A DNA stretch of 32,000 bases from Xylanibacter ruminicola 23. Lineage in GTDB: Bacteria > Bacteroidota > Bacteroidia > Bacteroidales > Bacteroidaceae. A model generated the notes under the pieces. The model was not told the DNA's origin. It did no database searches and saw only the letters and a program-made list of their open reading frames with translations. The stretch covers positions 3,540,001 through 3,572,000 of the forward strand of contig NC_014033.1 in NCBI RefSeq assembly GCF_000025925.1, in the 5' to 3' direction. The position numbers and the translations under genes are program-made. Shown piece by piece: positions 14,879 through 30,209 of the stretch. The first letter of the stretch is position 1; every line of letters starts with the position of its first letter.

Positions 14879-14886
14879 CAAAGGTA
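14879..14886 (-). promoter_or_regulatory. TAnnTTTG motif (tacctttg on minus strand) for the HU-smalltalk operon
   Basis: Exact motif about 175 nt upstream of the HU ATG. Confidence 0.45.
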
Positions 14887-14955
14887 CGAAATTTTCGTCA
14901 TACTATGAAATATCAACTGTTAATGAATTGTTAAAATCTCCAAGGTGCTGTAAGT

Positions 14956-15119: not shown

Positions 15120-15161
15120 ACAGAAATCTCTACAAAATTTGGTCGAATCAAAGATTTGTGC

Positions 15162-15169
15162 TATCTTTG
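15162..15169 (+). promoter_or_regulatory. TAnnTTTG motif (tatctttg)
   Basis: Exact motif 25 nt upstream of the ATG at 15194. This argues against the longer track ORF start at 15113. Confidence 0.5.
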
Positions 15170-15193
15170 CAAGCAAATCAACAATTAGTGGAT

Positions 15194-15496
15194 ATGCCCG
15201 TAGATAAGCAAGTATTATTAAGATATAGAGTTCTGAATAGATGTTTCAGAAACCCCTTTACTGAATATACTCTCGACGATTTGGTTGAAGAGTGCAACAA
15301 ATCACTGGTTGCTGAGTTCAACAAGCAGGTTGGCAGCCGGGCTTGGACTTCACTTCGCGGGCTGCATGATAGTGTGCTTATCGATACCTTGATTGCCAAA
15401 GGTGTTGATGTTTCGGCTGTTTATGATGGTGTAACTATCTCATTTAAGCGAAAAATCGCTTTAAATGCGGATAAAACTAAGGTTGTGTTTGCGTAG
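15194..15496 (+). CDS. 100-aa protein with the N-terminal HTH signature of Bacteroidales WYL-domain (BrxR/CapW-like) regulators; probably a truncated stub
   Basis: MPVDKQVLLRYRVLNRCFRNPFTEYTLDDLVEECNKSL fits the recalled pattern xxRYxxLxxCFxNxxxxYxxxDLxxxCN. The remaining roughly 60 aa show no WYL-domain-like sequence. Confidence 0.4.
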   Translation: MPVDKQVLLRYRVLNRCFRNPFTEYTLDDLVEECNKSLVAEFNKQVGSRAWTSLRGLHDSVLIDTLIAKGVDVSAVYDGVTISFKRKIALNADKTKVVFA

Positions 15497-15511
15497 TTCG
15501 TTTTTTTGTGT

Positions 15512-15519
15512 TATTTTTG
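15512..15519 (+). promoter_or_regulatory. TAnnTTTG motif (tatttttg) for hsdM
   Basis: Exact motif 25 nt upstream of the hsdM ATG. Confidence 0.55.
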
Positions 15520-15543
15520 CAGTGATAATTAAAAATAGATAAG

Positions 15544-17073: not shown

Positions 17074-17110
17074 TTTTCCACGCACTGCGTACACAATTTG
17101 AAACAAGACT

Positions 17111-18325
17111 ATGAATAAGGAAATACAGTTATCTGGCGAAAAACTGCTACGAGCTGTAGCTGATATTAAAGAAGCCATTTTGCAAGGCCAGTATGAGGCC
17201 AGCAAGGGCGTGAATCGCATACAGTTGGCAGTGTATTTTGGTATCGGAAAATATATCTCCCAGCATACACGAAAGGGTGTATGGGGTACTGGCGCATTAG
17301 ATGCAATCAGCAATCAGTTACGTAGAGAATTGCCTGGACTGCGTGGATTCTCGGCTACCAGTCTGAAGAAAATGCGATTGTTTTATGAACATTGGGCATT
17401 TTTGGACGCAAAATCGTCCGTCACAACGGACAATTTCAATTCGTCCGTCGCAACGGACGATATTTCAGGAAGTGAGCTTGCTGATAATTCGGCAACTTCA
17501 ATTGTAAAATTGGAAGAAATTGATATTTATAATACGATTCAAGTTCCTCTTACACAAGATTTTCCTATAGAGGACTTCTTTAGAGTTCCATTTACGCACC
17601 ATGTCGAAATATTCAAGATTACCAATCTTGATGCACGCTATTACTACATACATAGGACTGCTGAGGAACATCTTCAAGTAGAGAGGCTAAAGAAGTTGAT
17701 CAAGGAGGATGCCTACGGCCATCGTGAGCAGATGCCCAGCAACTTTACTAAAACCATTTCTAATGCTGAGATGATGCGTAAGGCCGTCATGATGTTTAAA
17801 GACTCCTACATGCTGGATTTTATTAATGTGGAGGAGATTGGTGTGCGTGACAGTATTGATGTGGATGAGCGTGTAGTTGAAAGGGAAATAGTGAATAAGG
17901 TGAAGAATTTCATCATGACTATAGGGCGCGACTTTACGTTTATGGGAAACCAACAGCTGTTGGAGGTATATGGCGTAGAGCAGTTCCCCGACTTGTTGTT
18001 CTTCAATCGCGAGCTGAATGCTATGGTGGTGATAGAACTGAAGACAGGTGAATTCAAAACCAGCTATCTTGGTCAGCTGATGGGCTATCTTACTATTCTG
18101 GACGAGAAAGTCAGAAAACCACATGAGAACCCTAGTATTGGTATGGTATTGTGCAAGTCGGCCAATCGTGAGTACGTGGAGTTCATGATTCGCGACTATT
18201 CAAAGCCAATGGGTGTGGCTACTTATAAAACGGCTGATGATATGCCAGAGAAATTCCGTAAAGCATTGCCTGATATTGATGCTTTGAAGAAATTGATGAG
18301 CGAAGGGCAAGATAAGGATGAATAG
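17111..18325 (+). CDS. DUF1016/YhcG-family PD-(D/E)xK nuclease embedded in the R-M operon
   Basis: 404 aa. YhcG-like N-terminal domain (...GFSATSLKKMRLFYEHW). C-terminal FPDLLFFNRELNAMVVIELKTGEFK...NPSIGMVLCKS matches the PD-ExK core. Confidence 0.8.
   Translation: MNKEIQLSGEKLLRAVADIKEAILQGQYEASKGVNRIQLAVYFGIGKYISQHTRKGVWGTGALDAISNQLRRELPGLRGFSATSLKKMRLFYEHWAFLDAKSSVTTDNFNSSVATDDISGSELADNSATSIVKLEEIDIYNTIQVPLTQDFPIEDFFRVPFTHHVEIFKITNLDARYYYIHRTAEEHLQVERLKKLIKEDAYGHREQMPSNFTKTISNAEMMRKAVMMFKDSYMLDFINVEEIGVRDSIDVDERVVEREIVNKVKNFIMTIGRDFTFMGNQQLLEVYGVEQFPDLLFFNRELNAMVVIELKTGEFKTSYLGQLMGYLTILDEKVRKPHENPSIGMVLCKSANREYVEFMIRDYSKPMGVATYKTADDMPEKFRKALPDIDALKKLMSEGQDKDE
17414..17461. repeat. Tandem 27-nt duplication, each copy a hairpin with core (G/A)CAACGGAC
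   Basis: tcgtccgtcacaacggacaat (6-bp stem) and tcgtccgtcgcaacggacgat (8-bp stem, loop cgca). They encode SSVTTDNFN and SSVATDDIS. Confidence 0.8.
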
Positions 18326-18365
18326 ATTCTAATTGTACTGAAATCGGTGCATTTAACTAAGATAT

Positions 18366-19544
18366 ATGGATAGAAGTAAGTGGGAATATAAGAAACTTGG
18401 AGAGGTAGCTAAGTTTGTCGGAGGAGGAACGCCTTCAAAAGCAAATGAGGATTATTACACTGGTAATATCCCCTGGGCAACCGTGCGTGATATGGTGAAT
18501 TTTAATCTATCGAAAACTGAATTGTGCATCACAGACCAGGCAGTCAAAGAAAGTGCAACAAATATTATTCCTAAAGATACTATTATAATTTCAACTCATG
18601 TAGGGTTAGGTAAGATATGTCTGTTAATGCAAGACACAGCGATCAATCAGGATTTGAAAGGTGTAATCCTCCCTCAATCAGTCGATAAAATGTTCTTTGC
18701 TGCATGGTATAAAAGTATTGCAGATTATGTCATATCTAATGGAAAAGGCGCAACCGTCAAGGGGGTGACTATGAAATTTGTAAATGACTTGAAGATTCCT
18801 ATACCACCTATTAATGACCAGCAGCGGATTGTGGCGGAGTTGGATTGCTTGAACGAAATGATTGCTTTAAAGCAAGAGCAGTTAAAGGAGTTCGATAAAC
18901 TCGCTCAGTCTATCTTCTATAATATGTTTGGGGATCCTGTTACTAATGAAAAGGAATGGGATGTTATTGAATTAGGGGATAAATGTGAGGTGACATCGTT
19001 TAAAAGAGTACTAATCGAGGATGTCGTTGATTCTGGAGTTCCTTTTATAAGAGGTACTGAATTAATGGCACTAAGCAAGGCTACTAAAGGTGAAAAAATA
19101 GAATTTACTTTATTCATAACACCAGAACATTATGAGCAAGTAAAAGCAATATCTGGCGTTCCCGCTGTTGGCGATTTGCTTATTCCATCAATTAATTCTG
19201 AAGGAAATATATGGATTCTTGACACTGACGAACCTCGATATTATAAAGACGGACGAGTCTTATGGGTGCATGTAAATCACGATGCTTACACAAGTGAAGC
19301 GTTGAAATTTATTATGCATATTTTGCTTAAGAAGACTTATTCTGTAATGGCCACAGGTGCCACATTTGCAGAACTTAAGTTATTTGTGTTGCGAGAACTA
19401 AAGACAATTCTTCCCCCTCTCGCTCTGCAGCAGCAATTCGCTGAAAAGATTCAGGCGATTGAGGCACAGAAGGAACTGGTAAAAAAGAGCATTGCTGAAA
19501 CTCAGCAGTTGCTTGATAGTAGAATGGATTATTATTTTGATTAA
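18366..19544 (+). CDS. hsdS: Type I R-M specificity subunit (two target-recognition domains)
   Basis: 392 aa. Repeated conserved regions (IPIPPINDQQRIVAELD...LKQEQL and LPPLALQQQFAEKIQAIEAQKEL) separate two variable TRDs. Visibly more AT-rich than the core genes. Confidence 0.9.
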   Translation: MDRSKWEYKKLGEVAKFVGGGTPSKANEDYYTGNIPWATVRDMVNFNLSKTELCITDQAVKESATNIIPKDTIIISTHVGLGKICLLMQDTAINQDLKGVILPQSVDKMFFAAWYKSIADYVISNGKGATVKGVTMKFVNDLKIPIPPINDQQRIVAELDCLNEMIALKQEQLKEFDKLAQSIFYNMFGDPVTNEKEWDVIELGDKCEVTSFKRVLIEDVVDSGVPFIRGTELMALSKATKGEKIEFTLFITPEHYEQVKAISGVPAVGDLLIPSINSEGNIWILDTDEPRYYKDGRVLWVHVNHDAYTSEALKFIMHILLKKTYSVMATGATFAELKLFVLRELKTILPPLALQQQFAEKIQAIEAQKELVKKSIAETQQLLDSRMDYYFD

Positions 19545-19559
19545 GATATTTTGAATATT

Positions 19560-19832
19560 ATGAATAAGGAACAAAAAATACATGAAGAAATGATGCGTAT
19601 GAAGGTCAATAATGCTACGATGGACATTATACGCGCAGTAAAGGTACAAGGTCTTGATCCGCAAGCAACTATTGTCTCTATCGTGAAAGCTTCGGCAGTT
19701 CTTATAGAGGGCTACGCTTCTATAGGCGGAGATGCTGATTCGTTAGAAATGATGATGAAGGAAATGATAAGGCCTGCGAGGAAGGAAGCGAAAAAGATGT
19801 ATAAAGACGCGAAGGATTTATTTAAAAACTAA
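19560..19832 (+). CDS. Hypothetical 90-aa protein between hsdS and hsdR
   Basis: First ATG at 19560 (track start 19551 is TTG). Predicted helical, Met/Lys-rich, with no recognisable motif. It fills an otherwise roughly 350-nt gap in the operon. Confidence 0.5.
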   Translation: MNKEQKIHEEMMRMKVNNATMDIIRAVKVQGLDPQATIVSIVKASAVLIEGYASIGGDADSLEMMMKEMIRPARKEAKKMYKDAKDLFKN

Positions 19833-19891
19833 ACGTGCAATGTCCCAGGTATGTCCTAAGTTGTAAATAGATAAATAAAACGATAACGACT

Positions 19892-22800
19892 ATGGCTAAA
19901 GAACCGACTATGTCGCTTGGCTCGTCCAAGAACTTCGACTACCTAAAAGAACTGCCGCTATTTACGACGCTGTATAATCAGTGCGACAAAGCGGAAAGTT
20001 GCTGCAAGACTGACCCAGATAAATCGGCAATGGCTTGCAGACGTTCATTAGAGTGGACTGTCGACCTGATTTATCGGGTACAGCATTGGGAAGTAGCGCC
20101 CCGTGCAACGCTCTTTGAAAAGGTAAAGGACTCGAAGTTTACCGATTTTATCAATTCGCGCGATTTGATGCAGAAACTGCATTTTGTGCGCAGCGTGGGC
20201 AATCGTGCTGCACATGCCGGCGGTGTGTCGAAAAAGGATAGCGAGTACGCCGTGATAGATATCTACTACTTTGTAGGCGACGTGCTGATGCTACTAGGCT
20301 ACATTGAGTGTTATCCTAAGTTTGATAAAGCGCTGATTCCTGATAAGGGTACACCAGTAATGGTGATTAGTGCTACCAGCGAAGAAATAGCCAAACAGCA
20401 GGAAGAGGCTGCTAAAACAGCTAAACCCGTAACTACTCCTGCATCGCAGGTGGTGGTAGCGCATAATCCTGAGAACCTATCCGAAGCCGAAACACGCAAG
20501 TTGTATATCGACGAGATGCTACGCGAGGCAGGGTGGGAGATATCAGAAACCGATAATGCTATCGTGAGCGGAAAGGCTTGCATCGAAATCGAGGTGCATG
20601 GTATGCCAAACGCATCGGGCATAGGTTATGCCGACTATGTGCTGTTTGATACCAACGGTATGCCTTTGGCTGTAGTTGAGGCTAAGAAAACAACGGTGGA
20701 TCCCATAGTGGGCAAAGCCCAAGCCGAACTCTATGCCAAGTGCCTGGAGGCAAAATATGGTGTAAAACCAGTAGTTTACTATACCAACGGATTCGAAACC
20801 AATATCATCGACGGATTGGGTTATCCAGCTCGCACTATCTACGGTTTCCATAGTCGACAGGATCTTCAGAAACTGATACAGAAGCGTGGCCGTCAGGATA
20901 TCATCGATATGCAGGCCAAGGACGAGATTGTGAACCGTCCATATCAAACCAGAGCCGTAAAACGTGTCTGCGAGCACTTTAATCTGAAGCATCGCCGCGC
21001 ATTGCTGGTAATGGCTACGGGTACAGGTAAAACGCGCGTATCTATAGCAATGGTAGAGGTGCTGCTGCGTAACAATTGGGTAAAGAATGTGCTGTTCTTA
21101 GCTGATCGTACAGCACTGGTAGAGCAGGCTTTTGGTAAGTTTAATACCTATCTGCCTGATGAGACCAAGTGTAATCTGTGCGACCCGCTGCAAGGCCGCA
21201 ACCTTGATGCACGTATATTGTTCTCTACCTACCAGACGATGATCAACTTCATCGATATCGAGGAGAAGACATTCAGTGTAGGTCGTTTCGATTTGATTAT
21301 CATCGATGAGGCTCACCGCTCGGTATTTGGTAAGTATGGTGCTATATTCGACTATTTCGACTCGTTGCTGGTAGGACTTACCGCCACGCCACGCGAGGAA
21401 ATCGACCGCAGCACCTACCGCCTGTTGGAGCTGGAGGATGGTGTGCCTAACGATTATTATGAGTATAGCGAGGCCGTAAGAGATGGGCATCTGGTAGATT
21501 TCGAGGCTCTTAGATACGATTCAGATATCCTGAAGCATGGTATCAGATACAACGACCGTACGGAAGAAGAAAAGGAACAATTAGATACCATCTTTGAGGA
21601 AGAGGGTACTGGCGAACGCGATATCGACAACAACGAGATATTCCGTTATATCTATAATACAGATACCATCGACAAGGTGCTGCAGGAACTGATGGAAAAG
21701 GGACTGCGTGTGGATAGCGGCGAGAATATAGGTAAGACCATTATATTTGCTTACAACCATAAGCATGCAGCAAAGATAGCCGAGCGGTTTGCTGTACTGT
21801 ATCCGCAACTGGGCGCTGACTATTGCGAGGTAATCGACTATCAGGAAACTCAGAAAAAGTATTTGCTTGGTGAGTTTGAGAAGGTAGATCACGAACCACG
21901 TATAGCCGTAAGTGTGGACATGCTTGATACAGGCATCGATGTGCCCGAAATACTGAATCTGGTATTCTTTAAACCGGTACACTCGAAGATTAAGTTCGAA
22001 CAGATGAAGGGACGTGGAACCCGACTGTGCGAGAACCTGTTAGGACCAGGCAAACATAAGGAGAAATTCCTGATTTTCGACTTCTGTAACAACTTTGATT
22101 ACTTCGACGAGAATCCGAATGGTGCCACTACTTCAAGGCCAGTATCGCTTACAGAGCGTATTTTCGGTATGAAGTCGGATATGACTTTGCTGTTGCAGCG
22201 CGAGGGTAATAAAGACTTTGAGCGCCAGCTGCATAGTGAGATGAAACACGAGTTATGGCAGCAGGTAGATGGGCTTGGATTTGAGCGAATACTGGTGCGT
22301 AAGAATGGGGCAGAGATCGACCCGTTCCGAGCCGAAAAATATTGGGATGACCTGAAGGAAGCCGATATCGCTGTACTAAAGCATACCATCGGCCCATTGC
22401 TGGTAGCTTCGGGTGACGAAATGGCTATGATGCTGGATGTGATGATGTATGCCTGCGAACTGGCATATCTCAGAAAGGTAGCTATGCCATCAGCTGTTGT
22501 CGAGAAACTTAAGCAACTGTGTTACTTCTTGAAAGCTAAGAAGAGTAACATCCCACAAGTAAGAGAGCAAATGGCAACCTTAGATGAGGTGATGACCGAC
22601 GAGTTCTGGCAGAAGGCTACGCTTGAGGATATGGAACGTGTGCGCAAGGTGCTGAGGGAACTGATGCGCTTTGCCATCGATAAGAACGATAACAAAACGT
22701 TTGATGTTGACATCAAGGATATCATAGATGCCCCACGCGTAGATACGCCTAAACCACAGAATGTAACTTATAGTCAGAAAGTGTTCGACTATCTGGCTGA

Positions 22801-23284
22801 GCATCGCAACGACGAGGTGTTCCAGAAGATATATAATATGGAGCAGTTGACTATTGCTGATGTACACGAGCTGGAGCGTATCATGTGGGAAGAGTTAGGT
22901 AGCAAGGAACAGTATGAAGAATACTGCAAACGAGAGCGCAAGATATATGGTGGCAATGTAGCTGCATTGATTCGTTCGCTGTGCGGTATCGACAGGGCAA
23001 AGGCTCATCAGAAGTTCTACGAGTTTATCCGTTCTGAGCAGCTAACAGCCATACAAGAGGAATATCTGGATAGCATACTGAACTATGTATGTGCCAATGG
23101 CGATATGGAACGCCGCACCTTAGGTCAGGATCCGTATCGTGAGTTTAACTGGCAACTGGCTTTTGGCGACAATCGCGCCAAAGTGGCCAACTACGTAGAT
23201 TTTATGCACCATCTGATAGAGGGCGTCATACCATACCCCAAACTCGACGAAGAAACCTCTCTCCCCATGGCCGCCGAAGAGTAA
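19892..23284 (+). CDS. hsdR: Type I restriction endonuclease subunit R with N-terminal DUF4145-like domain
   Basis: 1130 aa. PD-(D/E)xK motif (YADYVLFD...VVEAKK), Walker A MATGTGKT, DEAH box IIIDEAHRS, motif VI QMKGRGTR, and a long helical C-terminal region of the EcoEI-R type. The first roughly 140 aa resemble DUF4145. Confidence 0.9.
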   Translation: MAKEPTMSLGSSKNFDYLKELPLFTTLYNQCDKAESCCKTDPDKSAMACRRSLEWTVDLIYRVQHWEVAPRATLFEKVKDSKFTDFINSRDLMQKLHFVRSVGNRAAHAGGVSKKDSEYAVIDIYYFVGDVLMLLGYIECYPKFDKALIPDKGTPVMVISATSEEIAKQQEEAAKTAKPVTTPASQVVVAHNPENLSEAETRKLYIDEMLREAGWEISETDNAIVSGKACIEIEVHGMPNASGIGYADYVLFDTNGMPLAVVEAKKTTVDPIVGKAQAELYAKCLEAKYGVKPVVYYTNGFETNIIDGLGYPARTIYGFHSRQDLQKLIQKRGRQDIIDMQAKDEIVNRPYQTRAVKRVCEHFNLKHRRALLVMATGTGKTRVSIAMVEVLLRNNWVKNVLFLADRTALVEQAFGKFNTYLPDETKCNLCDPLQGRNLDARILFSTYQTMINFIDIEEKTFSVGRFDLIIIDEAHRSVFGKYGAIFDYFDSLLVGLTATPREEIDRSTYRLLELEDGVPNDYYEYSEAVRDGHLVDFEALRYDSDILKHGIRYNDRTEEEKEQLDTIFEEEGTGERDIDNNEIFRYIYNTDTIDKVLQELMEKGLRVDSGENIGKTIIFAYNHKHAAKIAERFAVLYPQLGADYCEVIDYQETQKKYLLGEFEKVDHEPRIAVSVDMLDTGIDVPEILNLVFFKPVHSKIKFEQMKGRGTRLCENLLGPGKHKEKFLIFDFCNNFDYFDENPNGATTSRPVSLTERIFGMKSDMTLLLQREGNKDFERQLHSEMKHELWQQVDGLGFERILVRKNGAEIDPFRAEKYWDDLKEADIAVLKHTIGPLLVASGDEMAMMLDVMMYACELAYLRKVAMPSAVVEKLKQLCYFLKAKKSNIPQVREQMATLDEVMTDEFWQKATLEDMERVRKVLRELMRFAIDKNDNKTFDVDIKDIIDAPRVDTPKPQNVTYSQKVFDYLAEHRNDEVFQKIYNMEQLTIADVHELERIMWEELGSKEQYEEYCKRERKIYGGNVAALIRSLCGIDRAKAHQKFYEFIRSEQLTAIQEEYLDSILNYVCANGDMERRTLGQDPYREFNWQLAFGDNRAKVANYVDFMHHLIEGVIPYPKLDEETSLPMAAEE

Positions 23285-23287
23285 GAA

Positions 23288-23418
23288 TAAAAAAGCGAGG
23301 AGCGAACATCACTGTTGGCTCCTCGTATTACTTAAACTATAAAATTGAATTAATCAACCATAAATCTTAACTAATGCTCAGCGCATCGCTGCGAATAATG
23401 GGCATTAAAACAAATTCC
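23288..23418 (-). ncRNA. Candidate small RNA (orphan promoter to terminator, about 130 nt)
   Basis: A minus-strand TAnnTTTG motif at 23425-23432 and a minus-oriented terminator at 23296-23325 bracket a region with no plausible ORF (longest is 12 aa). Confidence 0.25.
23296..23325. terminator. Hairpin terminator, stronger in the minus direction
   Basis: cgaggagc-N14-gctcctcg. On the minus strand it is followed by cttttttatt; on the plus strand only by tattactt. Confidence 0.6.
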
Positions 23419-23424
23419 TAGGTG

Positions 23425-23432
23425 CAAATATA
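23425..23432 (-). promoter_or_regulatory. Orphan TAnnTTTG motif (tatatttg on minus strand)
   Basis: Exact motif pointing toward the hsdR 3' end, with no minus-strand CDS downstream. Confidence 0.35.
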
Positions 23433-23495
23433 ATACTATTTTTTGAACCATCAATAATTAATCGGGAAAAATTTTGTTAATTCTATTAAATTTAT

Positions 23496-23503
23496 TACCT
23501 TTG
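23496..23503 (+). promoter_or_regulatory. TAnnTTTG motif (tacctttg)
   Basis: Exact motif about 215 nt upstream of the next sizeable ORF (23720), implying a long leader. Confidence 0.45.
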
Positions 23504-23719
23504 CATTCGTATTAGTAAACCTAACTTAAGTTATTTATTGAGAGTTGTTAACATGTTGAATTACTTAAAATCAGAAAGGAGGGCAAAGAGATGATGATAA
23601 CATAAGATTTTCCGTTTAATATTTGGGCGGAAAGTCTTTATTACGAAAGATGCACCGCCTGTGATAAATGTATGAAGACTAATATCAAACCTATTCTATA
23701 AAAGCTAAGACTGAATAAA

Positions 23720-24589
23720 ATGAAATTCAAGGTCTTTTTCGTCAGGTATGTACAAAGCATGCCTGATCTCTTCGGGAATGTCGTGGCCGTAGATGGTACC
23801 GATGCTCTCAAACCCGTGATTGTCAACGACTTCTTGAAACGCAAGGAGCTAACTTTTATCAACCCCAGAAATGGAAAAACCTATCACCGACATTATGCCA
23901 TTATGCCTCAGGGTGGAGTGGCTGTGATTGATGTGGGAAAATATGTGGATGGCAACTTTGTGTATGCTACCGTAGGCATTAATCTGAGCGGTAACCAGTA
24001 CCAACCATATATAGTGATAGGATGCCACCATAAAGAGTTTAGCGATACAAACCTGATAGCTAATATGGTAACACAATCGCTTAACTGGGCGCTGGCTGGT
24101 ACCAATACAACCGTAAAGCTTGAGGCCTGCCATAAGCCAATAGCCTGGGAAAAGGATATCTTGCATTCGTATATGAAGGGTATGGATAACCGTATGTTTA
24201 ACCCCATGAATGTTTTTGGATATGAGATGCTTGAAGAGCGGTTTGAAGAAATCGGTAAAAGTAAGGGGCGACCAAGAAAATCGATTAATATAGACGATTA
24301 TCTGCCCAAGGCTATGCGACAGAAAATTAAAGACTGGCTACATGAGGAGACTGATCAATATCAGTATCCGATTGATATGATGAGGGCTATAAGAGTTCTG
24401 TTTGAACTGGAGATTATTAAGAGGCCTACTTACGAGGCATTTGTGAGAGCGTTTGATAAAGAACAACTGATAGCGCCATCGACCTATAATAGTTATATGA
24501 ACCTGAATAATAATCCCTATGAACACGATGCTACTTACGTAAGTATGAAAGCTGATGCAAGGAGAAAGTTCTTTCTTGATAGCGTTTGA
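23720..24589 (+). CDS. Hypothetical 289-aa protein with AT-hook-like motif
   Basis: No family recognised. GKSKGRPRKSIN has a GRP core flanked by basic residues. The C-terminal block (...RPTYEAFVRAF...APSTYNSYMN) resembles a block in the next ORF. Confidence 0.65.
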   Translation: MKFKVFFVRYVQSMPDLFGNVVAVDGTDALKPVIVNDFLKRKELTFINPRNGKTYHRHYAIMPQGGVAVIDVGKYVDGNFVYATVGINLSGNQYQPYIVIGCHHKEFSDTNLIANMVTQSLNWALAGTNTTVKLEACHKPIAWEKDILHSYMKGMDNRMFNPMNVFGYEMLEERFEEIGKSKGRPRKSINIDDYLPKAMRQKIKDWLHEETDQYQYPIDMMRAIRVLFELEIIKRPTYEAFVRAFDKEQLIAPSTYNSYMNLNNNPYEHDATYVSMKADARRKFFLDSV

Positions 24590-24647
24590 TAGCGTTTGAT
24601 AGCATTTAATAGCATTAGATAGCGTTTAATAGCGCTTGATAGCATTA
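24578..24647 (+). repeat. Seven tandem 10-bp iteron-like repeats (R)ATAGCRYTW
   Basis: gatagcgttt gatagcgttt gatagcattt aatagcatta gatagcgttt aatagcgctt gatagcatta. The first unit overlaps the last codons of the AT-hook ORF. Confidence 0.9.
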
Positions 24648-24648
24648 T

Positions 24649-24700
24649 CCATTATTTCATATTTCGCTATGAAATGATGGATATTTTTTGTTTTATTTTT
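24649..24700 (+). terminator. 13-bp-stem AT-rich hairpin plus T-tract
   Basis: ccattatttcata-tttcgc-tatgaaatgatgg (1 mismatch) followed by atattttttgttttattttt. Confidence 0.55.
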
Positions 24701-24712
24701 AGCTGGATACTT

Positions 24713-24720
24713 TACTTTTG
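24713..24720 (+). promoter_or_regulatory. TAnnTTTG motif (tacttttg)
   Basis: Exact motif upstream of ORF 24803. Confidence 0.5.
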
Positions 24721-24802
24721 CAAGCGGATTTCCAACCATTAGTAATAATGTCTAAGCAGAAACATGTGTGGGCCTATTCTGTTTCGCAAACGTGAAGCAA
24801 GA

Positions 24803-25285
24803 ATGAAACAAATTGTGATAGAAATTGAGGATGAGGCTTACGAGCCTTTTATGGGAATGTTGCGCCTTTGTCCTGCTGCAAAGGTGGTGGGCACGAACAG
24901 CTTTGCTGAAACACGCGATGTGATTGATCGGTGTTTTGCTGAAGCTATTAGGGAGTTGCAAGCCGATAAAAAGGTGTATAAGCGTCCCAGCGACCTGGCT
25001 TACATCATGATAGGTGTAAACGATGGTGCTATTAATGGTGTGGATTATTATCTAACGCCTGATGACTTTACTGGCTATCTGTTACAGGTTGGTATTAATC
25101 AACTGCCTAAACGCTCAACAATCTACAATAAGGTGAATGACACCGTTGGCAAATTTCCTGATTGGAGCTTTGTACATGATGTGAAACCTAAAGAAAAGAT
25201 AAGGAGAAAAAATCTGTTTTTGCGTTTTTCGAGTGCTTTCGGAAGGGCTAAACGCCAAAAGTTGGACGGATTTTTGGACAAGTAA
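24803..25285 (+). CDS. Hypothetical 160-aa protein
   Basis: Start chosen at MKQIVIEIEDEAYEPF (the track start 24764 adds 13 unlikely residues). Unknown family. Shares a ...P.D....I...F......ST.YN... pattern with the C-terminus of the preceding ORF. Confidence 0.6.
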   Translation: MKQIVIEIEDEAYEPFMGMLRLCPAAKVVGTNSFAETRDVIDRCFAEAIRELQADKKVYKRPSDLAYIMIGVNDGAINGVDYYLTPDDFTGYLLQVGINQLPKRSTIYNKVNDTVGKFPDWSFVHDVKPKEKIRRKNLFLRFSSAFGRAKRQKLDGFLDK

Positions 25286-25312
25286 CCGAAAGCTGGACAG
25301 GTTTCTGGACAA
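25262..25312 (+). promoter_or_regulatory. Duplicated 20-nt unit, each with two TGGAC half-sites
   Basis: ttggacggatttttggacaa (25262-25281, the last codons of ORF 24803) and ctggacaggtttctggacaa (25293-25312), about 40 nt upstream of the next promoter motif. Confidence 0.5.
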
Positions 25313-25349
25313 TCGAAAAAACGGCCATTGTCGGCTCGAAAACTTGCTA

Positions 25350-25357
25350 TACTTTTG
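25350..25357 (+). promoter_or_regulatory. TAnnTTTG motif (tacttttg) for the 25412-30209 operon
   Basis: Exact motif 55 nt upstream of the ATG at 25412. Confidence 0.5.
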
Positions 25358-25411
25358 CCGACGGAAATCAGATGATAGTCGTCTGATATGGTTTAAATTA
25401 AAGAATAAAAA

Positions 25412-25765
25412 ATGAGAAAGAAGATGAACATTATCGGTTACTTTACTGTACCGATAAAAGTGATTGAGGGTGAAATGAGTTGCGATCAGGACATCGACAG
25501 CTACGCACTCAACGTTAAGGATCTGTTGGACCAACAGGTGAGTCAAGAACTGAGTGAAAAACTTACTGAGATGCTACTTGGTTTTAATGAAGATGTGCAA
25601 CTGGAAATGGTTGAGAACATGCTTAGTTTTATCTGTGCTAAGGTGCTGCACACTACGGGGTGTTATTCGGTTGATACAGCATTGGAATTGTGCTATAAGT
25701 GGATTGGCGAGGAGCTAGGAATAGCTACCAGCGGGTTCGGTAAACTGATGAATAAGCTGATTTAA
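25412..25765 (+). CDS. Hypothetical 117-aa protein (possible C-terminal HTH)
   Basis: Unknown family. The C-terminal segment YSVDTALELCYKWIGEELGIATSGFGKLMNKL has a helix-turn-helix-like character. Confidence 0.55.
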   Translation: MRKKMNIIGYFTVPIKVIEGEMSCDQDIDSYALNVKDLLDQQVSQELSEKLTEMLLGFNEDVQLEMVENMLSFICAKVLHTTGCYSVDTALELCYKWIGEELGIATSGFGKLMNKLI

Positions 25766-25767
25766 CG

Positions 25768-25959
25768 ATGGCGGAGAAGAAAATTAGAATAGAAGGCCGG
25801 GTGAAACGGATAGAGTATCTGAGATACCTGGCTAATGTGAGAGCTGAAGAACACCAGGCGGTGGATATGGGATACCGCATCACGCGCAAAAGTATCGAAG
25901 AGATTAGGGAGGAATTCGTTAGAGTTTCAAATTTTGATTCAATCTATTTGGAAATTTAA
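25768..25959 (+). CDS. Hypothetical 63-aa protein
   Basis: Starts 2 nt after the previous stop (coupled). Charged and helical, with no motif recognised. Confidence 0.45.
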   Translation: MAEKKIRIEGRVKRIEYLRYLANVRAEEHQAVDMGYRITRKSIEEIREEFVRVSNFDSIYLEI

Positions 25960-25960
25960 A

Positions 25961-25987
25961 AATGTAACAATGAAATAATGTAACAAT
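25961..25987 (+). repeat. Direct repeat AATGTAACAAT x2 (16-bp spacing)
   Basis: Copies at 25961-25971 and 25977-25987. The 9-mer TGTAACAAT also occurs at 15105-15113, in the control region upstream of the R-M locus. Confidence 0.8.
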
Positions 25988-26006
25988 TTTAAAAAGTAAA
26001 AGAATT

Positions 26007-26288
26007 ATGAACACAATGATTTTAAGAGTGAAAAAGTGCGGGGTAATGACTACCGTACAGAGTGAGAAAAGTGAGAATGGCGTACTTGACAAGCGTACAC
26101 TGGTACTGCAGATGTTGGGTGGCAAGTATGAGGACAGCTTTGTGGTAACAGCCCTGGGCAGTTTGGCCACCATCGAGTGGACCGAGGGCGAGTTGGTTGC
26201 CTGTAGCATGAGCTTCAGAACCCGAGAGCACAACGGACAGGTGTACATGGACGTGATTGCGAACGAAATCCAAAAGATTAAACGTTGA
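26007..26288 (+). CDS. DUF3127-like small OB-fold protein (possible ssDNA binder)
   Basis: 93 aa. The pattern (...VQSEKSENGVLDKRTLVLQ...YEDSFVVTALGS...EGELVACSMSFRTREHNGQVYMDVIANEI) matches my memory of DUF3127 topology. Confidence 0.5.
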   Translation: MNTMILRVKKCGVMTTVQSEKSENGVLDKRTLVLQMLGGKYEDSFVVTALGSLATIEWTEGELVACSMSFRTREHNGQVYMDVIANEIQKIKR

Positions 26289-26321
26289 ACATTAAACATT
26301 AAAGATTAAACATTAAAGATT
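26287..26321 (+). repeat. Heptamer array E (5 units)
   Basis: gaacatt aaacatt aaagatt aaacatt aaagatt, from the stop of the DUF3127-like ORF to 9 nt before the next ATG. Confidence 0.9.
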
Positions 26322-26330
26322 AAAAAAGTT

Positions 26331-26888
26331 ATGTATTTAAGTGAAGCAATTAAAGCAATGGAGATGAACCTCCGCAGCACATGTATGATGCTGGAGGCTG
26401 TAAGAAACAATCAAGTGGACAAGGCAATAGATTATGACTGGCTGCCGATGCAGGACCATCTGGCCTTGTGTATTCCAACGATTACTATTAGCGAGGAATC
26501 AAGTGTGGAGGACTGCTTAAAGTACCTAGGTCAGCTGTACAAAGGGCTTACCAAAGCTATGGCCCACTATAAGAAGGGCAATCGTATAGTAGGAGATGTG
26601 GATCGCAATGTAGTGTATATGGTTGACATGCTGTATGGGTTAATAGGGCACCAGTTTAACGAGGACTATGTGAACTGTGCCAGAGAGTGTGTTAAGGCAT
26701 ATAACCAGACACCTATCGATCCTAACGAAGAAAAGAACGATGAGAACGCTCGTATCTGGCGACGCAAGGTGCTTGATAAGTTCGGTGTTATCCTGAAGAA
26801 GTACGATATCGACATTACCGAAAAAGGTGAGTGGAGTATCAGAGAGGGGTATCTGGTGGAATGGTTAGATAGAAAGTACTGGAAATAA
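26331..26888 (+). CDS. Hypothetical 185-aa protein
   Basis: Intact ORF in the operon context, preceded by a heptamer array. No motif recognised. Confidence 0.6.
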   Translation: MYLSEAIKAMEMNLRSTCMMLEAVRNNQVDKAIDYDWLPMQDHLALCIPTITISEESSVEDCLKYLGQLYKGLTKAMAHYKKGNRIVGDVDRNVVYMVDMLYGLIGHQFNEDYVNCARECVKAYNQTPIDPNEEKNDENARIWRRKVLDKFGVILKKYDIDITEKGEWSIREGYLVEWLDRKYWK

Positions 26889-26976
26889 ACAATTTTGAGT
26901 TGAGGTGAGGAGGATATTCTCGAGTAAATGGCCAAAGAATCCGAAACTTCTTCTCGCTTTAAAACTCAAAAACAAA

Positions 26977-27348
26977 ATGAAAACAAATAACAAATTAAAC
27001 AAGACCGTAACTGTTAACGGCATGATGGCCGTTACAAAGAGTGATTTAGAAATGGATTATGTGCAGTTTTTGCCTGATAATCCGAGTATAGGACAAGTGG
27101 AGGCTTTTCGTGGTCGTGGATTAGGTCAATTGTTGACCAACGGATCATTTGAGTTTGTGAGAACCAAACGATTGCGCCATAAACCTGAATTCAAAGGTGG
27201 TTACGCCAGTTTGTCGTTTGGCGCAGATGGCAATGATCGCGTAACTTTTGTGGTGCCTAACGAACTGCGCGCCCAGTTGCCAACCATCCTGCGAAAGGGT
27301 ATTTGTCCAATCATTAAACACCTGCAAAAGAAAGGATTTAGTAAATGA
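26977..27348 (+). CDS. Hypothetical 123-aa protein
   Basis: ATG at 26977 preceded by an A-rich leader (the track start 26905 is GTG). Its stop overlaps the next start (ATGA). Confidence 0.55.
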   Translation: MKTNNKLNKTVTVNGMMAVTKSDLEMDYVQFLPDNPSIGQVEAFRGRGLGQLLTNGSFEFVRTKRLRHKPEFKGGYASLSFGADGNDRVTFVVPNELRAQLPTILRKGICPIIKHLQKKGFSK

Positions 27349-29690
27349 TTTACCGTATCATAAATAAGGGTAAGAAGTTTGCTTATCTGGTAAAGAATCG
27401 TGAAGATTTCTTGGCGCTTAGAAACACCAAGGAGAATCTGGAGAACTTAGCCAAAGCGCGCAAAGGCGATGAGAAAGCTAAGGCCCAATTGGTGCAGTTT
27501 GCCTACAATATCGGTGTGCTAAAAAGTTCGGCTTTGGCTGGTTGCAAGAGCATTGGTAGCTACTTTTTTCATGATGTGGATTGCTACGATGCTGAACAGA
27601 GTGCAGCGATTGCAAAGCAGATATTGGCCAAGAAGGATGAGATTGGCTTGATGATGCTGGAGAAAAGTGCGAGTGGAGGATATCATTTGGTTTGTAAGCG
27701 CCAGCCTGGTACTACTCTTCTCGAGAATCAAGTGCGCATTGCGACCATTCTGCAGATTGAGATGGATACTAACGTGCATGATTTGCAAAGGGTGGTCTAT
27801 TCGACTAGTGGTGATGAAAAAGATTTACTTTATCTTGACGACGAGCTGTTTGGTGAACCGATGACGGTTGAGGAGTGCGAGGCGGAATATGCTAGATTGA
27901 AAGAGCGTGAACGTAAAGGTGAAGAGCAGGTGCCGGCTGGGGCTAAGAAGGCGAGGAAGCACTATAAGCCTTGGACTGAATTATTAGCAACGGACAACAG
28001 GACTAACAGGTCTGATTCTGCTGCTGAAAATACTACTGAAGAAAAAATCCTAAAGTCCTGTAGTCCGTTGCAAAATAAACCAATCGATGAAAGGGTAAGG
28101 TTTGTGATGGAGGCGGTTTTGAAGGCGAAGGGGCTGGAGAAGTCGGACTTTACGGATATTGGCGGTAGGCATAATGCGGTGAAGATATTCCTGAGTGGCT
28201 GTAACCAGTTATTAAGTAAGGAGGAGGCAAACGGAGCTTTGGCGGAACTGATGCCCGAACATTGGGCCGATGCGAATGTACAGAAATGCCTGAGTGATTT
28301 TTATGCCAAGTATTACAATCCTGAACGAAAACTGAATAAGGATGAAGAGGCAATATTTACGAAGAGTAGGAGACTGGGGGATGATAAAGAATCAGAAGTG
28401 AGTGATCGTTCTGCTCCTATTCCTCCTGAGATGCCGGCAAAACTGCCGAAACTGATTAAACTACTTACCAAGAATACCCCCAACCAATACAAAGCTGCGG
28501 TGGCGCATGCGGTGTTTCCATCGCTTGGAACACACTTGAAAGAAGTGGAGTTTGAGTACACCGATTACGTGAAGCATGAGGCCACGCTGATGAACTGTCT
28601 GATGGCGCATACGGGCGCAGGTAAAGGCTGTATAGATGAGCCCATCCGCCACATTATGGCCGATATTAAAGCCCGCGATGCCGAGAACACCCGACGTGAA
28701 GCCGAATGGAAAAAGGATTGCCAAAAGAAGGGCGCCAATAAGGACAAGCAGGTTCGCCCCGAAGGACTGGTGATACAAGAGATTGATCCCGATATGACCA
28801 AGCCTGCATTGGTTACCCGTATGGACGAAGCTGAAGGCCACTTTGTATATGTAAAGCTGAACGAGATTGACCTGTTTGAGCAGCTGAAAGGTCAGACTGG
28901 CAAGCAGCATTTCCAGCTGATGTGCTTGGCTTTCGATCCAGGTGCTGAGTTCGGTCAAACACGTATCGGTACACAGAGTGTAACTGCCAGACCTAAGTGT
29001 AGGTTCAACTGGAACGCCTGTACTACCATCCAAAAAGGTCGTCGCTTCTTCAGTCGTGTACTCACCGATGGTCCTATCAGCCGAATTAACTTCTGTACCA
29101 TCCCTGAGATGGAAATTGGAGCTGAACAACCTATCTATGGCAAGTACGACGAGGCGTTTGATGCTGAGCTGAAAACGTATATCGACAACCTTGTGTCGGC
29201 TCATGGTGTGGTGGATTGTCCGCAGGCATTCAAACTGGCTAAAAAGCTACAAGAGGAGTGCGCTGAATTTGCCCGATTGTCGCAGGATGAAACCTACTGG
29301 AACCTGTCGCATCGTGCCATTGTGATAGCCTGGTTAAAGGCCTGTGTGCTGTATGTGGCCAATGGCTGCCAATGGGAAAAGACGATTGAAGATTTTGTCC
29401 GTTGGAGCCTGCAGTACGATCTGTGGTGCAAAATGCAGTTCTTTGGTGAGGACATTGAAAAAGCCAACCAAGAAGGCGAGCGCATAGGAACTCGAGGCCC
29501 TCGTAATCTGCTGGAGCTGTTGCCTGATGAGTTTAGATTAGAAGATATTCAGCGTGTGCGCATCAAGCAGGGTATGTCTGGTGATAAACATAAATGCGGT
29601 CAGATGATTCGTCAGTGGGTTCATCGCAAATATGTGTTACAGGTGACAGATGACAGTTTTGTTAAGAGCGAAAAGTTTAGGAAACGTTAA
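27345..29690 (+). CDS. Primase-like protein: AEP/BT4734-type N-terminal domain plus DUF3987-like C-terminal region
   Basis: 781 aa. AEP motif I FFHDVDCYD and motif II KSASGGYHLV in the first roughly 130 aa. The C-terminal half has a P-loop-like HTGAGKGC. A low-complexity linker (aa about 215-243) carries the palindromic element. Confidence 0.7.
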   Translation: MIYRIINKGKKFAYLVKNREDFLALRNTKENLENLAKARKGDEKAKAQLVQFAYNIGVLKSSALAGCKSIGSYFFHDVDCYDAEQSAAIAKQILAKKDEIGLMMLEKSASGGYHLVCKRQPGTTLLENQVRIATILQIEMDTNVHDLQRVVYSTSGDEKDLLYLDDELFGEPMTVEECEAEYARLKERERKGEEQVPAGAKKARKHYKPWTELLATDNRTNRSDSAAENTTEEKILKSCSPLQNKPIDERVRFVMEAVLKAKGLEKSDFTDIGGRHNAVKIFLSGCNQLLSKEEANGALAELMPEHWADANVQKCLSDFYAKYYNPERKLNKDEEAIFTKSRRLGDDKESEVSDRSAPIPPEMPAKLPKLIKLLTKNTPNQYKAAVAHAVFPSLGTHLKEVEFEYTDYVKHEATLMNCLMAHTGAGKGCIDEPIRHIMADIKARDAENTRREAEWKKDCQKKGANKDKQVRPEGLVIQEIDPDMTKPALVTRMDEAEGHFVYVKLNEIDLFEQLKGQTGKQHFQLMCLAFDPGAEFGQTRIGTQSVTARPKCRFNWNACTTIQKGRRFFSRVLTDGPISRINFCTIPEMEIGAEQPIYGKYDEAFDAELKTYIDNLVSAHGVVDCPQAFKLAKKLQEECAEFARLSQDETYWNLSHRAIVIAWLKACVLYVANGCQWEKTIEDFVRWSLQYDLWCKMQFFGEDIEKANQEGERIGTRGPRNLLELLPDEFRLEDIQRVRIKQGMSGDKHKCGQMIRQWVHRKYVLQVTDDSFVKSEKFRKR
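27987..28071. repeat. Palindromic element copy 2, in-frame inside the primase-like ORF
   Basis: gcaacggacaacaggact (27987-28004) against agtcctgtagtccgttgc (28054-28071): 17/18 complementary, 49-nt spacer. 28044-28078 is nearly identical to 6318-6352. Confidence 0.85.
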
Positions 29691-29723
29691 ACATTAAACA
29701 TTAAACATTAAAGATTAAACATT
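29689..29723 (+). repeat. Heptamer array F (5 units)
   Basis: aaacatt aaacatt aaacatt aaagatt aaacatt, spanning from the primase-like stop codon to 3 nt before the M15 ATG. Confidence 0.9.
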
Positions 29724-29726
29724 AAA

Positions 29727-30209
29727 ATGGAACAGATAGTACAATTGAATAGTAAAGCAAACCTCTCCGAGCACTTCTTGCTCGGGGAGTTCACCAGGAG
29801 TAAGTATCCTGAAGTGTATAACATCCCTAGTCATGAGGTTATAGCCCATTTGAAGAACCTCTGCACTTGGCTGGAGGTTTTGCGAGAGAAAGCCTCGCAA
29901 CCTATCATCATTAACTCGGGTTATCGATCGCCGCAGTTGAATCGGAAGGTTGGTGGAGCACCCACTAGTAATCACTTAACGGGATGCGCTGTAGATATTC
30001 GTACTTCGGGGTATGAACAGGCGATAGTGTATGCGGCCATCCTCATCAATTATGCTAAAGAATCGCAGCAGGAGTTTGATGAACTGCTGATAGAGAAGCG
30101 CTCGGCTTTGCCGCTTGGCTCGTCCAAGAATCGCTATGGTGCCGTGTGGCTGCACTTTGCGGTTAGACCGAAAGATAATCGGCATAAAGTGAATTTTTTG
30201 ACTACATGA
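29727..30209 (+). CDS. Peptidase M15 (D-Ala-D-Ala carboxypeptidase/endolysin-like) zinc hydrolase
   Basis: 160 aa. SGYRSPQLNRKVGGAPTSNHLTGCAVDI (H-x6-D zinc site) and a distal His in VWLHFAV. Confidence 0.8.
   Translation: MEQIVQLNSKANLSEHFLLGEFTRSKYPEVYNIPSHEVIAHLKNLCTWLEVLREKASQPIIINSGYRSPQLNRKVGGAPTSNHLTGCAVDIRTSGYEQAIVYAAILINYAKESQQEFDELLIEKRSALPLGSSKNRYGAVWLHFAVRPKDNRHKVNFLTT

Follow-up and report, generated by a model that had tools for sequence, protein, structure and literature searches.

A seven-gene operon that ends in a primase-like gene and a cell wall hydrolase gene, beside a restriction-modification (R-M) system, raises the question of what kind of element it belongs to. The operon occupies positions 25350-30209 of the window, by which we mean the whole 32,000-nucleotide (nt) stretch of Xylanibacter ruminicola 23 that was analyzed (contig NC_014033.1, positions 3,540,001 to 3,572,000 of the forward strand). 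A previous reading of this DNA made from its letters alone, hereafter the sequence-only reading, had offered three possibilities: a satellite-like or domesticated replicative element, a conserved Bacteroidales module that couples priming to cell wall remodeling, or an abortive-infection device. The first fits best, given purifying selection, stable chromosomal sites, absence from phage collections, and a predicted origin. We favor, with moderate confidence, the explanation that the operon forms the right arm of a satellite-like replicon island that is resident, derives from a phage, and encloses exchangeable defense genes. On balance, we also think that the island spans about 13929-30209 of the window, an upstream extension of 11-16 kb that the sequence-only reading had missed. 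Such islands are apparently common in rumen Prevotella and apparently undescribed.

As had been proposed, seven tightly packed open reading frames (ORFs) follow a promoter motif on the + strand, all at the positions given for them: orf117 (25412-25765), the small conserved orf63 (25768-25959), orf93 (26007-26288; DUF3127-like, a putative single-stranded DNA [ssDNA]-binding protein with an oligonucleotide/oligosaccharide-binding [OB] fold), orf185 (26331-26888), orf123 (26977-27348; the conserved partner directly 5′ of the primase gene), orf781 (27345-29690; a primase-helicase of 781 amino acids [aa]), and the M15 zinc peptidase gene (29727-30209; endolysin-like and without a signal peptide). 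The intergenic gaps from orf117 to M15 are 2, 47, 42, 88, −4, and 36 nt, the −4 being the ATGA overlap by which orf123 and orf781 had been said to be coupled, and the ATG start of orf123 is backed by homologues of 121-123 aa. The −7 promoter consensus of Bacteroidetes is TAnnTTTG, and the promoter-like −7 motif of the operon, TACTTTTG (25350-25357, + strand), agrees with it. Since further TAnnTTTG motifs stand 5′ of the neighboring genes, namely orf289 (23498), orf173/160 (24713), and a downstream 616-aa gene (30231), it is plausible that 25350-30209 forms a single transcription unit. Scans for sigma-70 promoters and terminators returned sites no more frequently than in shuffled sequence, with the exception of a T-run hairpin at 24646-24683.

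The 781-aa protein had been guessed to combine an archaeo-eukaryotic primase (AEP) with a DUF3987-like domain. Searches of Pfam (E ≤ 0.1), NCBIfam, PHROGs, PADLOC, and the sequences of the PDB gave no match for orf781 itself. Of 30 homologues of full length (27-57% identical), 9 matched BT4734-like_N (PF08800; best E 2.7e-11) and 8 matched DUF3987 (PF13148; best E 2.9e-8), and many relatives carry precomputed PF13148 matches and the NCBI name "DUF3987 domain-containing protein." The AEP motifs, defined as I (hhhDhD/E), II (sxH), and III (hD/E) (PMC5862659), are present in orf781 as FFHDVD (residues 74-79), GYH (112-114), and EMD (139-141); 30 diverse homologues all have D77, D79, and D141, and the close ones all have H114. 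The Walker A motif is HTGAGKGC (residues 422-429, with GAGK at 424-427), in which G426 and K427 are invariant over 30 sequences. With invariant motifs and homologues that match both families, the guess held up, and orf781 would belong to the BT4734-like AEP primases transitively, through its homologues, its own score lying under the threshold of the model. We divided the protein into a BT4734-like AEP domain (residues ∼1-200), a variable linker with a helical domain, a DUF3987-like P-loop core (∼360-720), and a winged-helix-like tail (720-781). Searches of the PDB with an orf781 profile gave weak matches to P-loop and Cdc6 chains (E 0.07-0.6). The tail was the best-modeled part in an AlphaFold prediction, its last ∼60 residues showing a strand-helix-helix-strand-strand order of winged-helix-like topology with a predicted local distance difference test score (pLDDT) of 82-88; C-terminal winged-helix domains of mobile-element AEP-helicases have been proposed as origin recognizers (PMC5862659). 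The family as a whole comprises 6746 homologues in 1243 clusters at 50% identity.

To compare the neighborhoods of these genes, 80 loci were fetched from species-representative rumen Prevotellaceae genomes, out of 378 genomic matches that often number 2-3 per genome, and more loci were added by exact-protein look-up; they are numbered from L001. The window was assigned to X. ruminicola assembly GCA_019973335.1, and a position in L002 plus 17344 gives the window position. Across 85+ Prevotellaceae loci, the core consists of an orf123-like gene, the primase-helicase gene, and a gene for a small peptidoglycan hydrolase, often accompanied by orf63- and orf93-like genes. Neighbor clustering placed the orf123-like family at position −1 to the primase in 43 loci and a 109-aa family there in 17; upstream of the primase it found orf63-like genes in 30 loci, orf93-like genes in at least 27-33, a Bro-N/ANT antirepressor gene in 24, and a gene for a ∼300-aa Peptidase_S24 protein in 10. 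The accessory genes orf117 and orf185 occur in only 4 and in 4-5 loci, respectively, and are both missing from the paralogous locus L001 of the same genome, which shares DNA with the window only over part of orf63 plus orf93 (76%) and over orf123-orf781-M15 (91-93%). The seven-gene cluster of the sequence-only reading is thus real, and the conserved unit within it is smaller.

The small peptidoglycan hydrolase encoded directly 3′ of the primase belongs to one of three families that have no relation to each other: M15_3 (∼22 loci), the phi6-P5-like "RNNNPLNIR" family (∼25 loci; phrog_873 endolysin, E 8e-36), or DUF5675 (5 loci). In 7 further loci, a GH24 lysozyme gene lies upstream of the primase instead. 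This nonorthologous displacement indicates that a hydrolase as such is under selection beside the primase. The proposed conserved pairing of a primase with a cell wall enzyme is therefore a recurrent pattern, seen here in Prevotellaceae rather than in Bacteroidales as a whole. Ratios of nonsynonymous to synonymous substitution rates (dN/dS) against paralogues and orthologues were 0.03-0.05 for orf123, 0.07-0.17 for orf781, 0.09-0.11 for M15, and 0.09 for orf93; these four genes are under purifying selection, and the ORFs of the module are intact in >85 loci.

Assignments for the partner proteins were as follows. The M15 protein matched Pfam Peptidase_M15_3 (E 6e-18, 65.4 bits against a cut-off of 23.2), the phrog_894 endolysin of PHROGs (E 3e-29), and 1lbu in the PDB (E 2e-4), and its zinc-ligand motifs, H-x6-D (SNHLTGCAVD) and WLHF, can be read intact from the sequence, in agreement with the zinc peptidase that had been predicted. 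For orf93, the match to Pfam DUF3127 (E 5e-5, 23.9 bits) fell under the cut-off of 27; four of its relatives also match DUF3127, a domain found in the OB-fold single-stranded DNA-binding protein (SSB) of a phage (PMC8004638), and the DUF3127-like OB-fold proposal gains from both. The sole match of an orf93 profile in the PDB was a repeat protein, which we dismissed as spurious. In line with the sequence-only reading, which had recognized no motif in four of the seven proteins, orf63, orf185, orf123, and orf117 (suggested there to have a possible helix-turn-helix) matched no family in Pfam, NCBIfam, PHROGs, or PADLOC scans. An AlphaFold model of orf123 (pLDDT 75.6) has six strands and a C-terminal helix, with no structural neighbor in the PDB or BFVD and no profile match in the PDB. 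Sequence like that of orf63 forms, in other loci such as L009 and L010, the C-terminal half of a protein of ∼110-130 aa whose N terminus carries a zinc-ribbon-like CCxSC...C...C motif; the window copy is the C-terminal half only. None of 40 small neighborhood proteins matched DUF4248, which gives no link to the DUF4248 proteins of Bacteroides, and none of the nine proteins of 23720-30209 matched PADLOC-DB 2.0. Capsid, terminase, integrase, and holin genes, which the sequence-only reading had not seen, were likewise not found among the scanned window ORFs.

The arm that lies to the left of the R-M system is transcribed from the − strand. Its outermost gene (13929-14033) encodes a 34-aa smalltalk peptide (Pfam DUF6486, PF20096, E 5.4e-11, 42.4 bits against 22.7; NCBIfam NF033879, E 4.4e-13, 48.8 against 24.7), and next to it stands the gene for HU-HIG, an HU-like DNA-binding protein (14160-14702; PF18291, E 3e-13, 50.3 bits against a cut-off of 26.2), transcribed away from an origin-like element described below. 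With a local hidden Markov model (HMM), HU-HIG was detected in 20 of 95 loci, each time 3-9 kb upstream of the primase gene and on the strand opposite to it, and smalltalk adjoins it in 13 of these 20. HU-HIG was found downstream of the hydrolase in no locus, though an equal length of downstream sequence was searched, and there is therefore no sign of circular permutation. The HU-HIG expansion of Bacteroidetes has been described as multicopy and fast evolving, with almost no conserved linkage and a proposed role in biological conflict (Burroughs et al. 2017, PMC5499826); a variable cargo slot between HU-HIG and the primase would have hidden their linkage from that analysis.

In the window, this slot (15113-23284, + strand) holds a type I R-M system, a DUF1016/YhcG nuclease gene, and orf127. 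Pfam assigned hsdM (15544-17073), hsdS (18366-19544), and hsdR (19892-23284), all on the + strand, which bears out the R-M neighbor named in the sequence-only reading; the DUF1016/YhcG PD-(D/E)XK nuclease gene (17111-18325, +) sits between hsdM and hsdS. Of 11 Pfam-annotated loci, 10 have R-M or other defense genes, which lie next to the hydrolase or else upstream, in the interval from the regulators to the next conserved landmark. The cargo is type I R-M in the window, L086, and L088, where it comes with GmrSD and Fic; type II R-M and AbiH in L093; NotI R-M in L096; NgoPII R-M with HigBA and WYL in L092; MmeI, T5orf172, and PLD in L099; DndB-like genes and Abi_2 in L001; DEAD-MZB, UvrD, and PLD in L083; and Zorya, downstream of the hydrolase, in L084. 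The minimal locus, L085, has no cargo. The R-M neighbor of the operon is thus cargo in a recurrent slot and not a chance neighbor, and since GmrSD and Fic occupy the equivalent place in L088, the R-M operon appears to be a cargo site itself. On the other side, the flank after the hydrolase differs at every site, being a polysaccharide locus in the window and UvrD, cation efflux, OmpA, FolD, or other genes elsewhere, from which we conclude that the island ends at the hydrolase.

Between HU-HIG and the cargo lies the origin-like element (14954-15121, no strand), in which inverted iteron arms surround a TA palindrome. Each arm (14954-14983 and 15092-15121) has 2-3 tandem GTTACAG/GTGACAG iterons ending in CAGTTT, the two arms being inverted, and the TA-rich perfect palindrome between them, at about 15015-15050, is itself flanked by a divergent pair of TAnnTTTG motifs. 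The window contains the iteron pair nowhere else (2 matches against 0.04 expected), the region folds as ssDNA with −30 kcal/mol (z −6.7 against shuffled sequence), and the distance from the element to the primase gene is 12.3 kb. We found the same iteron/palindrome architecture in 16 of 17 HU-HIG loci examined, with lineage-specific iterons repeated in both arms (GATGACAG, GATGGCAG, TTGACAG, AATTCAG, AATACAG, ATCTCAG, and others). When metagenomes were searched with the 26-nt palindrome alone, 63 of 95 well-flanked contigs had inverted CAG-iteron arrays on both arms. In many of the palindrome contigs (L100-L219), the sequence runs out at most a few hundred bases from the palindrome, and three genome contigs stop just left of HU-HIG, which suggests that the palindrome element and the HU-HIG region are repeated and so break assemblies.

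Comparison of the loci made the tail of orf781 the candidate for recognizing these iterons. Tail identity covaried with iteron similarity over 15-16 partly related loci (Spearman −0.39, permutation p 2e-4; without a duplicate locus, −0.29, p 0.009). No correlation with the iterons was seen for the AEP domain, the mid region, the helicase core, HU-HIG, or the −1 gene (p 0.27-0.95), and HU-HIG and the −1 gene were rejected on this ground as determinants of iteron specificity. Out-of-sample loci with TTGACAG iterons had tails closest to the earlier TTGACAG loci (66-74%) and cores closest to loci with other iterons, and the tail of an out-of-sample GATGGCAG locus tracked its iteron in the same way. 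Taken together, the covariation and the correct out-of-sample prediction suggest that the tail recognizes the iterons and that the left and right arms would form one origin-initiator pair across the cargo. By its architecture and its matching to an initiator in silico, the element is a putative iteron-type origin. The other parts of orf781 vary in their own manner: across the HU-HIG loci compared, the helicase core (residues 360-720) is 64-99% identical and the AEP domain 12-88%, and an alignment of 16 loci showed the AEP domain (1-200) and mid region (245-345) swapped independently and the tail variable. Close relatives of orf781 have helicase cores 80-96% identical, yet AEP domains only 12-25% identical; such near-identical cores with unrelated AEP domains indicate that the primase domain and linker are exchanged as cassettes.

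The right arm opens with orf289 (23720-24589, +), a candidate regulator gene and the positional analogue of the S24 (CI/LexA-like) gene of relatives. A direct-repeat array of 10 bp × 6.8 copies of TTGATAGCGT (24576-24643, +), found with Tandem Repeats Finder (TRF), overlaps the orf289 stop codon as a candidate operator. Then come the hairpin with T-run (24646-24683, +), a candidate terminator from the terminator scan, and orf173/160 (24803-25285, +; the gene call is 160 aa), an accessory gene with the promoter motif of its own mentioned above that occurs in 7 loci. Neither orf289 nor orf173/160 matched a family in Pfam, NCBIfam, PHROGs, or PADLOC. The idea that orf289 is a diverged S24 repressor was rejected because it has no homology to the S24 proteins of relatives, and a regulator role is therefore assigned to it by position only. 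In L003, orf289 is conserved together with its repeat array. More broadly, in ∼20 loci a direct-repeat array with a 10-12-bp period and 3-8 copies comes directly after the first right-arm gene, whose product is orf289, an S24 protein, or a member of either of two further families. The sequence of the array tracks the gene family, being of the AAACTCNC type with S24, TTGATAGCGT with orf289 (window and L003), and CCCCTATATAG with a third family. This suggests that the array and the first right-arm gene make up a repressor-operator pair upstream of the operon, and the S24 and Ant proteins of relatives suggest phage-like SOS or antirepressor induction.

These observations can be joined in a working mechanism. 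The left arm would consist of the smalltalk peptide, HU-HIG, and the origin-like element, the middle would be the cargo slot, and the right arm would consist of a regulator gene with its own repeat array (orf289 here; S24 or Bro-N/ANT in relatives) followed by the operon. Upon inactivation of the regulator, for example by an SOS or phage cue acting through S24 or Ant in the relatives, the winged-helix-like tail of orf781 would bind the iterons, HU-HIG would act as an architectural factor in the loading of the helicase at the TA palindrome, and synthesis would be primed by the AEP domain. Replication of the island with its cargo might follow, either in situ or once a function provided in trans has excised the island. 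The hydrolase, produced last, may contribute to lysis, either for release, in the manner of a satellite, or as the altruistic death expected of a defense island. A farther-reaching version of this scheme is that an integrase-less multicopy replicon of rumen Prevotellaceae, and perhaps of Bacteroidales, fires on a phage or SOS signal at the HU-HIG-side origin and amplifies its cargo in place in onion-skin fashion until the endolysin ends the cycle; we regard this version as possible but doubtful.

Several points weigh against the replicon island. Its replication, induction, and lysis are predictions from sequence alone. Taken as a whole, orf781 was modeled poorly by AlphaFold (pLDDT 45), and a Foldseek search with this model returned nothing significant, only winged-helix and Prim-Pol matches below threshold. 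The iteron unit of each locus was picked by eye, the covariation comes from partly related loci, and the out-of-sample loci come down to about two lineages that are independent. In 19 of 40 well-flanked contigs, the iterons and TA palindrome are present and the HMM detects no HU-HIG, and several HU-HIG contigs have no primase within 7-10 kb, a range shorter than the 12.3 kb of the window; the element may therefore serve other partners or be the operator of divergent promoters. The window has neither the S24 nor the Ant regulator of its relatives, and orf289 is a candidate regulator by its position only. The hydrolase is accompanied by neither a holin nor a signal peptide, and lysis is thus not assured. 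Fixed sites and old paralogues also speak against current mobility.

This last point bears most directly on the alternative that the island is a true mobile phage satellite or integrative element, which would excise, replicate, and be packaged by a helper, with the missing functions supplied in trans or encoded farther out and the defense genes carried as satellite cargo, as in P4-like elements and PICIs (phage-inducible chromosomal islands). In its favor are the pairing of the primase-helicase with an origin-like site cognate to it, the S24 and Bro-N/ANT proteins that relatives have as regulators, and the slot for defense cargo. The copies, however, look old and stationary. L001, upstream of UvrD in the window genome, and L083, at the same site in Prevotella sp. 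khp1, are 98% identical, with homology continuing through the right flank, whereas paralogues are 93% identical within the window genome and 72-87% identical within another; since same-site orthologues are more alike than the paralogues of one genome, the copies appear to have been inherited in place. Structural, packaging, and integrase genes (the last sought within 10 kb) and att-like repeats were not found in the 11 loci with Pfam-annotated flanks, the one recombinase exception being L086 (2192-5442; Prevotella sp. P6B1), where three consecutive tyrosine-recombinase genes, in an arrangement resembling a recombinase-in-trio, split hsdR upstream of the module. Nor did Pfam and PHROGs scans of the window and its relatives reveal a recognized family of genes that hijack helper capsids or packaging. 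The primase gave one partial match among 50,697 phage records, to an unannotated 4-kb fecal "Bacteriophage sp." record, and none in PLSDB plasmids or in IMG/VR (2.9 million contigs, searched with eight conserved peptide patterns), and on these searches a phage or plasmid provenance of the primase was rejected. The TA palindrome was also not found in IMG/VR, and the position of HU-HIG, never 3′ of the hydrolase, gives no indication of circular permutation. Without integrase, att sites, packaging genes, or a presence in virions as sampled by IMG/VR, the island does not qualify as a member of the satellite families, and we consider the mobile element unlikely. One pair of metagenome contigs also speaks for it. 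L096 and L097 share an 8.7-kb segment (4934-13641) with cargo, primase, and hydrolase at 99.86% identity. To the left of the intergenic region between HU and cargo, where the two have different flanks and different HU-like genes, they diverge fully, and they part again within the gene of the right flank; the pattern reflects either a chimeric assembly or recombination in the region of the origin.

Under the third proposal of the sequence-only reading, a self-contained abortive-infection system, intermediates of phage replication would be sensed by the primase-helicase or by its partners, the hydrolase would kill the cell, and the replication features would be vestigial. Its constant position among defense genes, the retention of a hydrolase through four nonhomologous replacements, and the strong purifying selection are in keeping with such a system, but none of the nine proteins has a PADLOC match and the hydrolase has no evident export route. 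Furthermore, the AEP residues and Walker A motif are invariant and the tail covaries with a distant DNA element, which would be hard to account for if no real DNA transactions took place there. We consider this explanation quite unlikely.

There are also features that would suit a housekeeping or regulatory module of Prevotellaceae, in which HU-HIG and the palindrome serve as a divergent promoter/operator for variable loci and the hydrolase remodels the wall, with no autonomous replication. Sites are fixed and inheritance is vertical, a polysaccharide locus lies downstream in the window, and the palindrome stands between two divergent TAnnTTTG motifs and is also found with no detectable primase nearby. 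Bacteroides presumably has clusters of an HU-like protein, DUF4248, a VirE_N/DUF3987 protein, and an N-acetylmuramoyl-L-alanine amidase, for example around BT0706-BT0710, and the module might be the counterpart of these uncharacterized HU, DUF3987, and amidase clusters. DUF3987 does stand close to an amidase at BT0706-BT0710 of B. thetaiotaomicron in the gene lists of one source (PMC10434189). Against a housekeeping role, the downstream flank differs at each site and is a polysaccharide locus only in the window, the regulators of relatives are of phage type (S24 and Ant), the hydrolases belong to phage endolysin families without signal peptides, and a catalytically intact primase-helicase has no obvious regulatory part to play. 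We find such a module improbable, and a counterpart of the Bacteroides clusters equally so. Finally, an ordinary decaying prophage remnant whose genes merely persist is very improbable and already largely refuted, for although its recognizable parts (Ant, S24, SSB-like protein, primase-helicase, and endolysin) are all phage-type and the structural genes are gone, the purifying selection (dN/dS 0.03-0.17 in four genes) and the gene content contradict it, the same minimal gene set recurring in >85 loci with several copies per genome, no locus retaining structural genes, and the family being missing from phage collections.

The replicon island, the reading we prefer, has parts in common with several known systems. 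Like the phage satellites (P4-like elements, PICIs, and PICI-like elements [PLEs]), it is small (8-16 kb), has a primase-helicase module with its own, here predicted, origin, shows phage-type repressor/antirepressor control in its relatives, and is a hotspot of variable antiphage systems. Unlike them, it has no integrase, att sites, or genes that redirect capsids or packaging, it carries an endolysin, and its copies are old paralogues at fixed orthologous sites that were not found in viral contig collections. With the AEP primase-helicase fusions of mobile elements (BT4734-like; DUF3987/VirE/DUF927; Kazlauskas et al. 2018, PMC5862659), orf781 shares the domain order of AEP, helical domain, P-loop helicase, and C-terminal winged-helix-like domain as well as catalytic motifs I-III and Walker A; it differs in scoring under every Pfam/NCBIfam threshold, in the swapping of the AEP and mid region with the helicase core kept, and in an origin-like site up to 12 kb from the primase gene. 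Inverted tandem repeats that flank an AT-rich palindrome and a repeat sequence matched to the DNA-binding domain of a helicase protein, here by covariation only, recall the origins with origin recognition boxes (ORBs) or iterons, such as the archaeal ORB/DNA unwinding element (DUE) arrangement and those of SV40, papillomavirus, and P4; the element of the island is set apart by its place between divergent promoters beside an HU-like gene and by a palindrome that is also found without a detectable primase nearby. When compared by gene lists only, the Bacteroides clusters resemble the island in uniting an HU protein, a DUF3987-type primase-helicase, and a wall hydrolase, but no Amidase_2 was seen in island loci and no DUF4248 match among their small proteins. 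The HU-HIG protein itself belongs to the same family as the described expansion (PMC5499826), for which almost no conserved operonic linkage was reported; here it is recurrently linked, in divergent orientation, with the origin-like element and, across the variable cargo slot, with the operon of primase and hydrolase.

We found no description of the module in the literature on DUF3987, DUF4248, smalltalk, HU-HIG, primases with amidases, or Bacteroidota satellites. The components are all of known kinds (an AEP primase-helicase, an endolysin, phage regulators, and an HU-like protein), and it is apparently the assembly that is new: an integrase-less, fixed-site, multicopy island whose predicted origin-initiator pair spans a slot that exchanges R-M, Abi, Dnd-like, Zorya-adjacent, and toxin-antitoxin genes. 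Should the replication model hold, it would offer a testable mechanism for the organization, and perhaps the amplification, of defense islands in a dominant rumen and gut lineage and would give a role to thousands of "hypothetical" primase-like proteins. The expansions of HU-HIG and smalltalk genes, so far unexplained, would be tied to a DNA element, as origin-associated partners, and the matched origin-initiator pairs could seed replicons that are needed for Prevotella genetics. Amplification in place, should it occur, would make the island a new class of defense-island scaffold, a prospect that we consider speculative.

A few observations concern the surroundings of the island and its finer sequence. 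To its right, a 616-aa ORF runs from 30268 to the window end (+; L002 12924-14774) with a signal-peptide-like N terminus, its own TAnnTTTG motif, and a weak HHH_3 match (E 8e-5), and starts a glycosyltransferase-rich polysaccharide locus right after the island. About 7 kb to its left, among housekeeping genes, lie genes for an AAA_15/AAA_21 ATPase and a DUF4435 protein (5441-6283 and 6359-7357, +), which we take to be the domain pair of the PARIS (AriA/AriB) antiphage system.

Intergenic leaders that end at start codons consist of tandem A-rich repeats of 7-9 nt, in the window AAACATT/AAAGATT, with 22 matches against 0.03 expected. They are found on the + strand at 25952-26001, 26273-26324, and 29682-29726 and on the − strand at 13894-13930, 14031-14063, 14105-14137, and 14726-14786, as well as in many other loci (e.g., L006 12298-12372 and L070 3036-3113), where the units are AAAAGTAA, AATTGAAG, AGTTAAAGG, and others. 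The repeat unit varies by lineage and the position is kept, above all in the primase-to-hydrolase spacer. The heptamer arrays were rejected as a module-specific signal because they also precede unrelated genes; they look like a general trait of Prevotella leaders and perhaps serve translation without a Shine-Dalgarno sequence.

A dispersed element of ∼44 nt, "...CGCTCGGCTTTGCCGCTTGGCTCGTCCAAGAATCCGTGCC," occurs in the window inside M15 (30090-30130) and at the hsdR 5′ end (19905-19932). A 28-nt direct repeat (19905/30103), the only long one found, was rejected as an att pair since it is part of this element. Elsewhere, the element is found in primase linkers (L003/L004/L088/L089 10693 and L009 5269) and between genes (L008 19209). 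Within unrelated genes, the insertion keeps the reading frame and is translated as RSALPLGSSKNPC; in the window M15 protein, it adds 10 residues that are missing in the paralogue.

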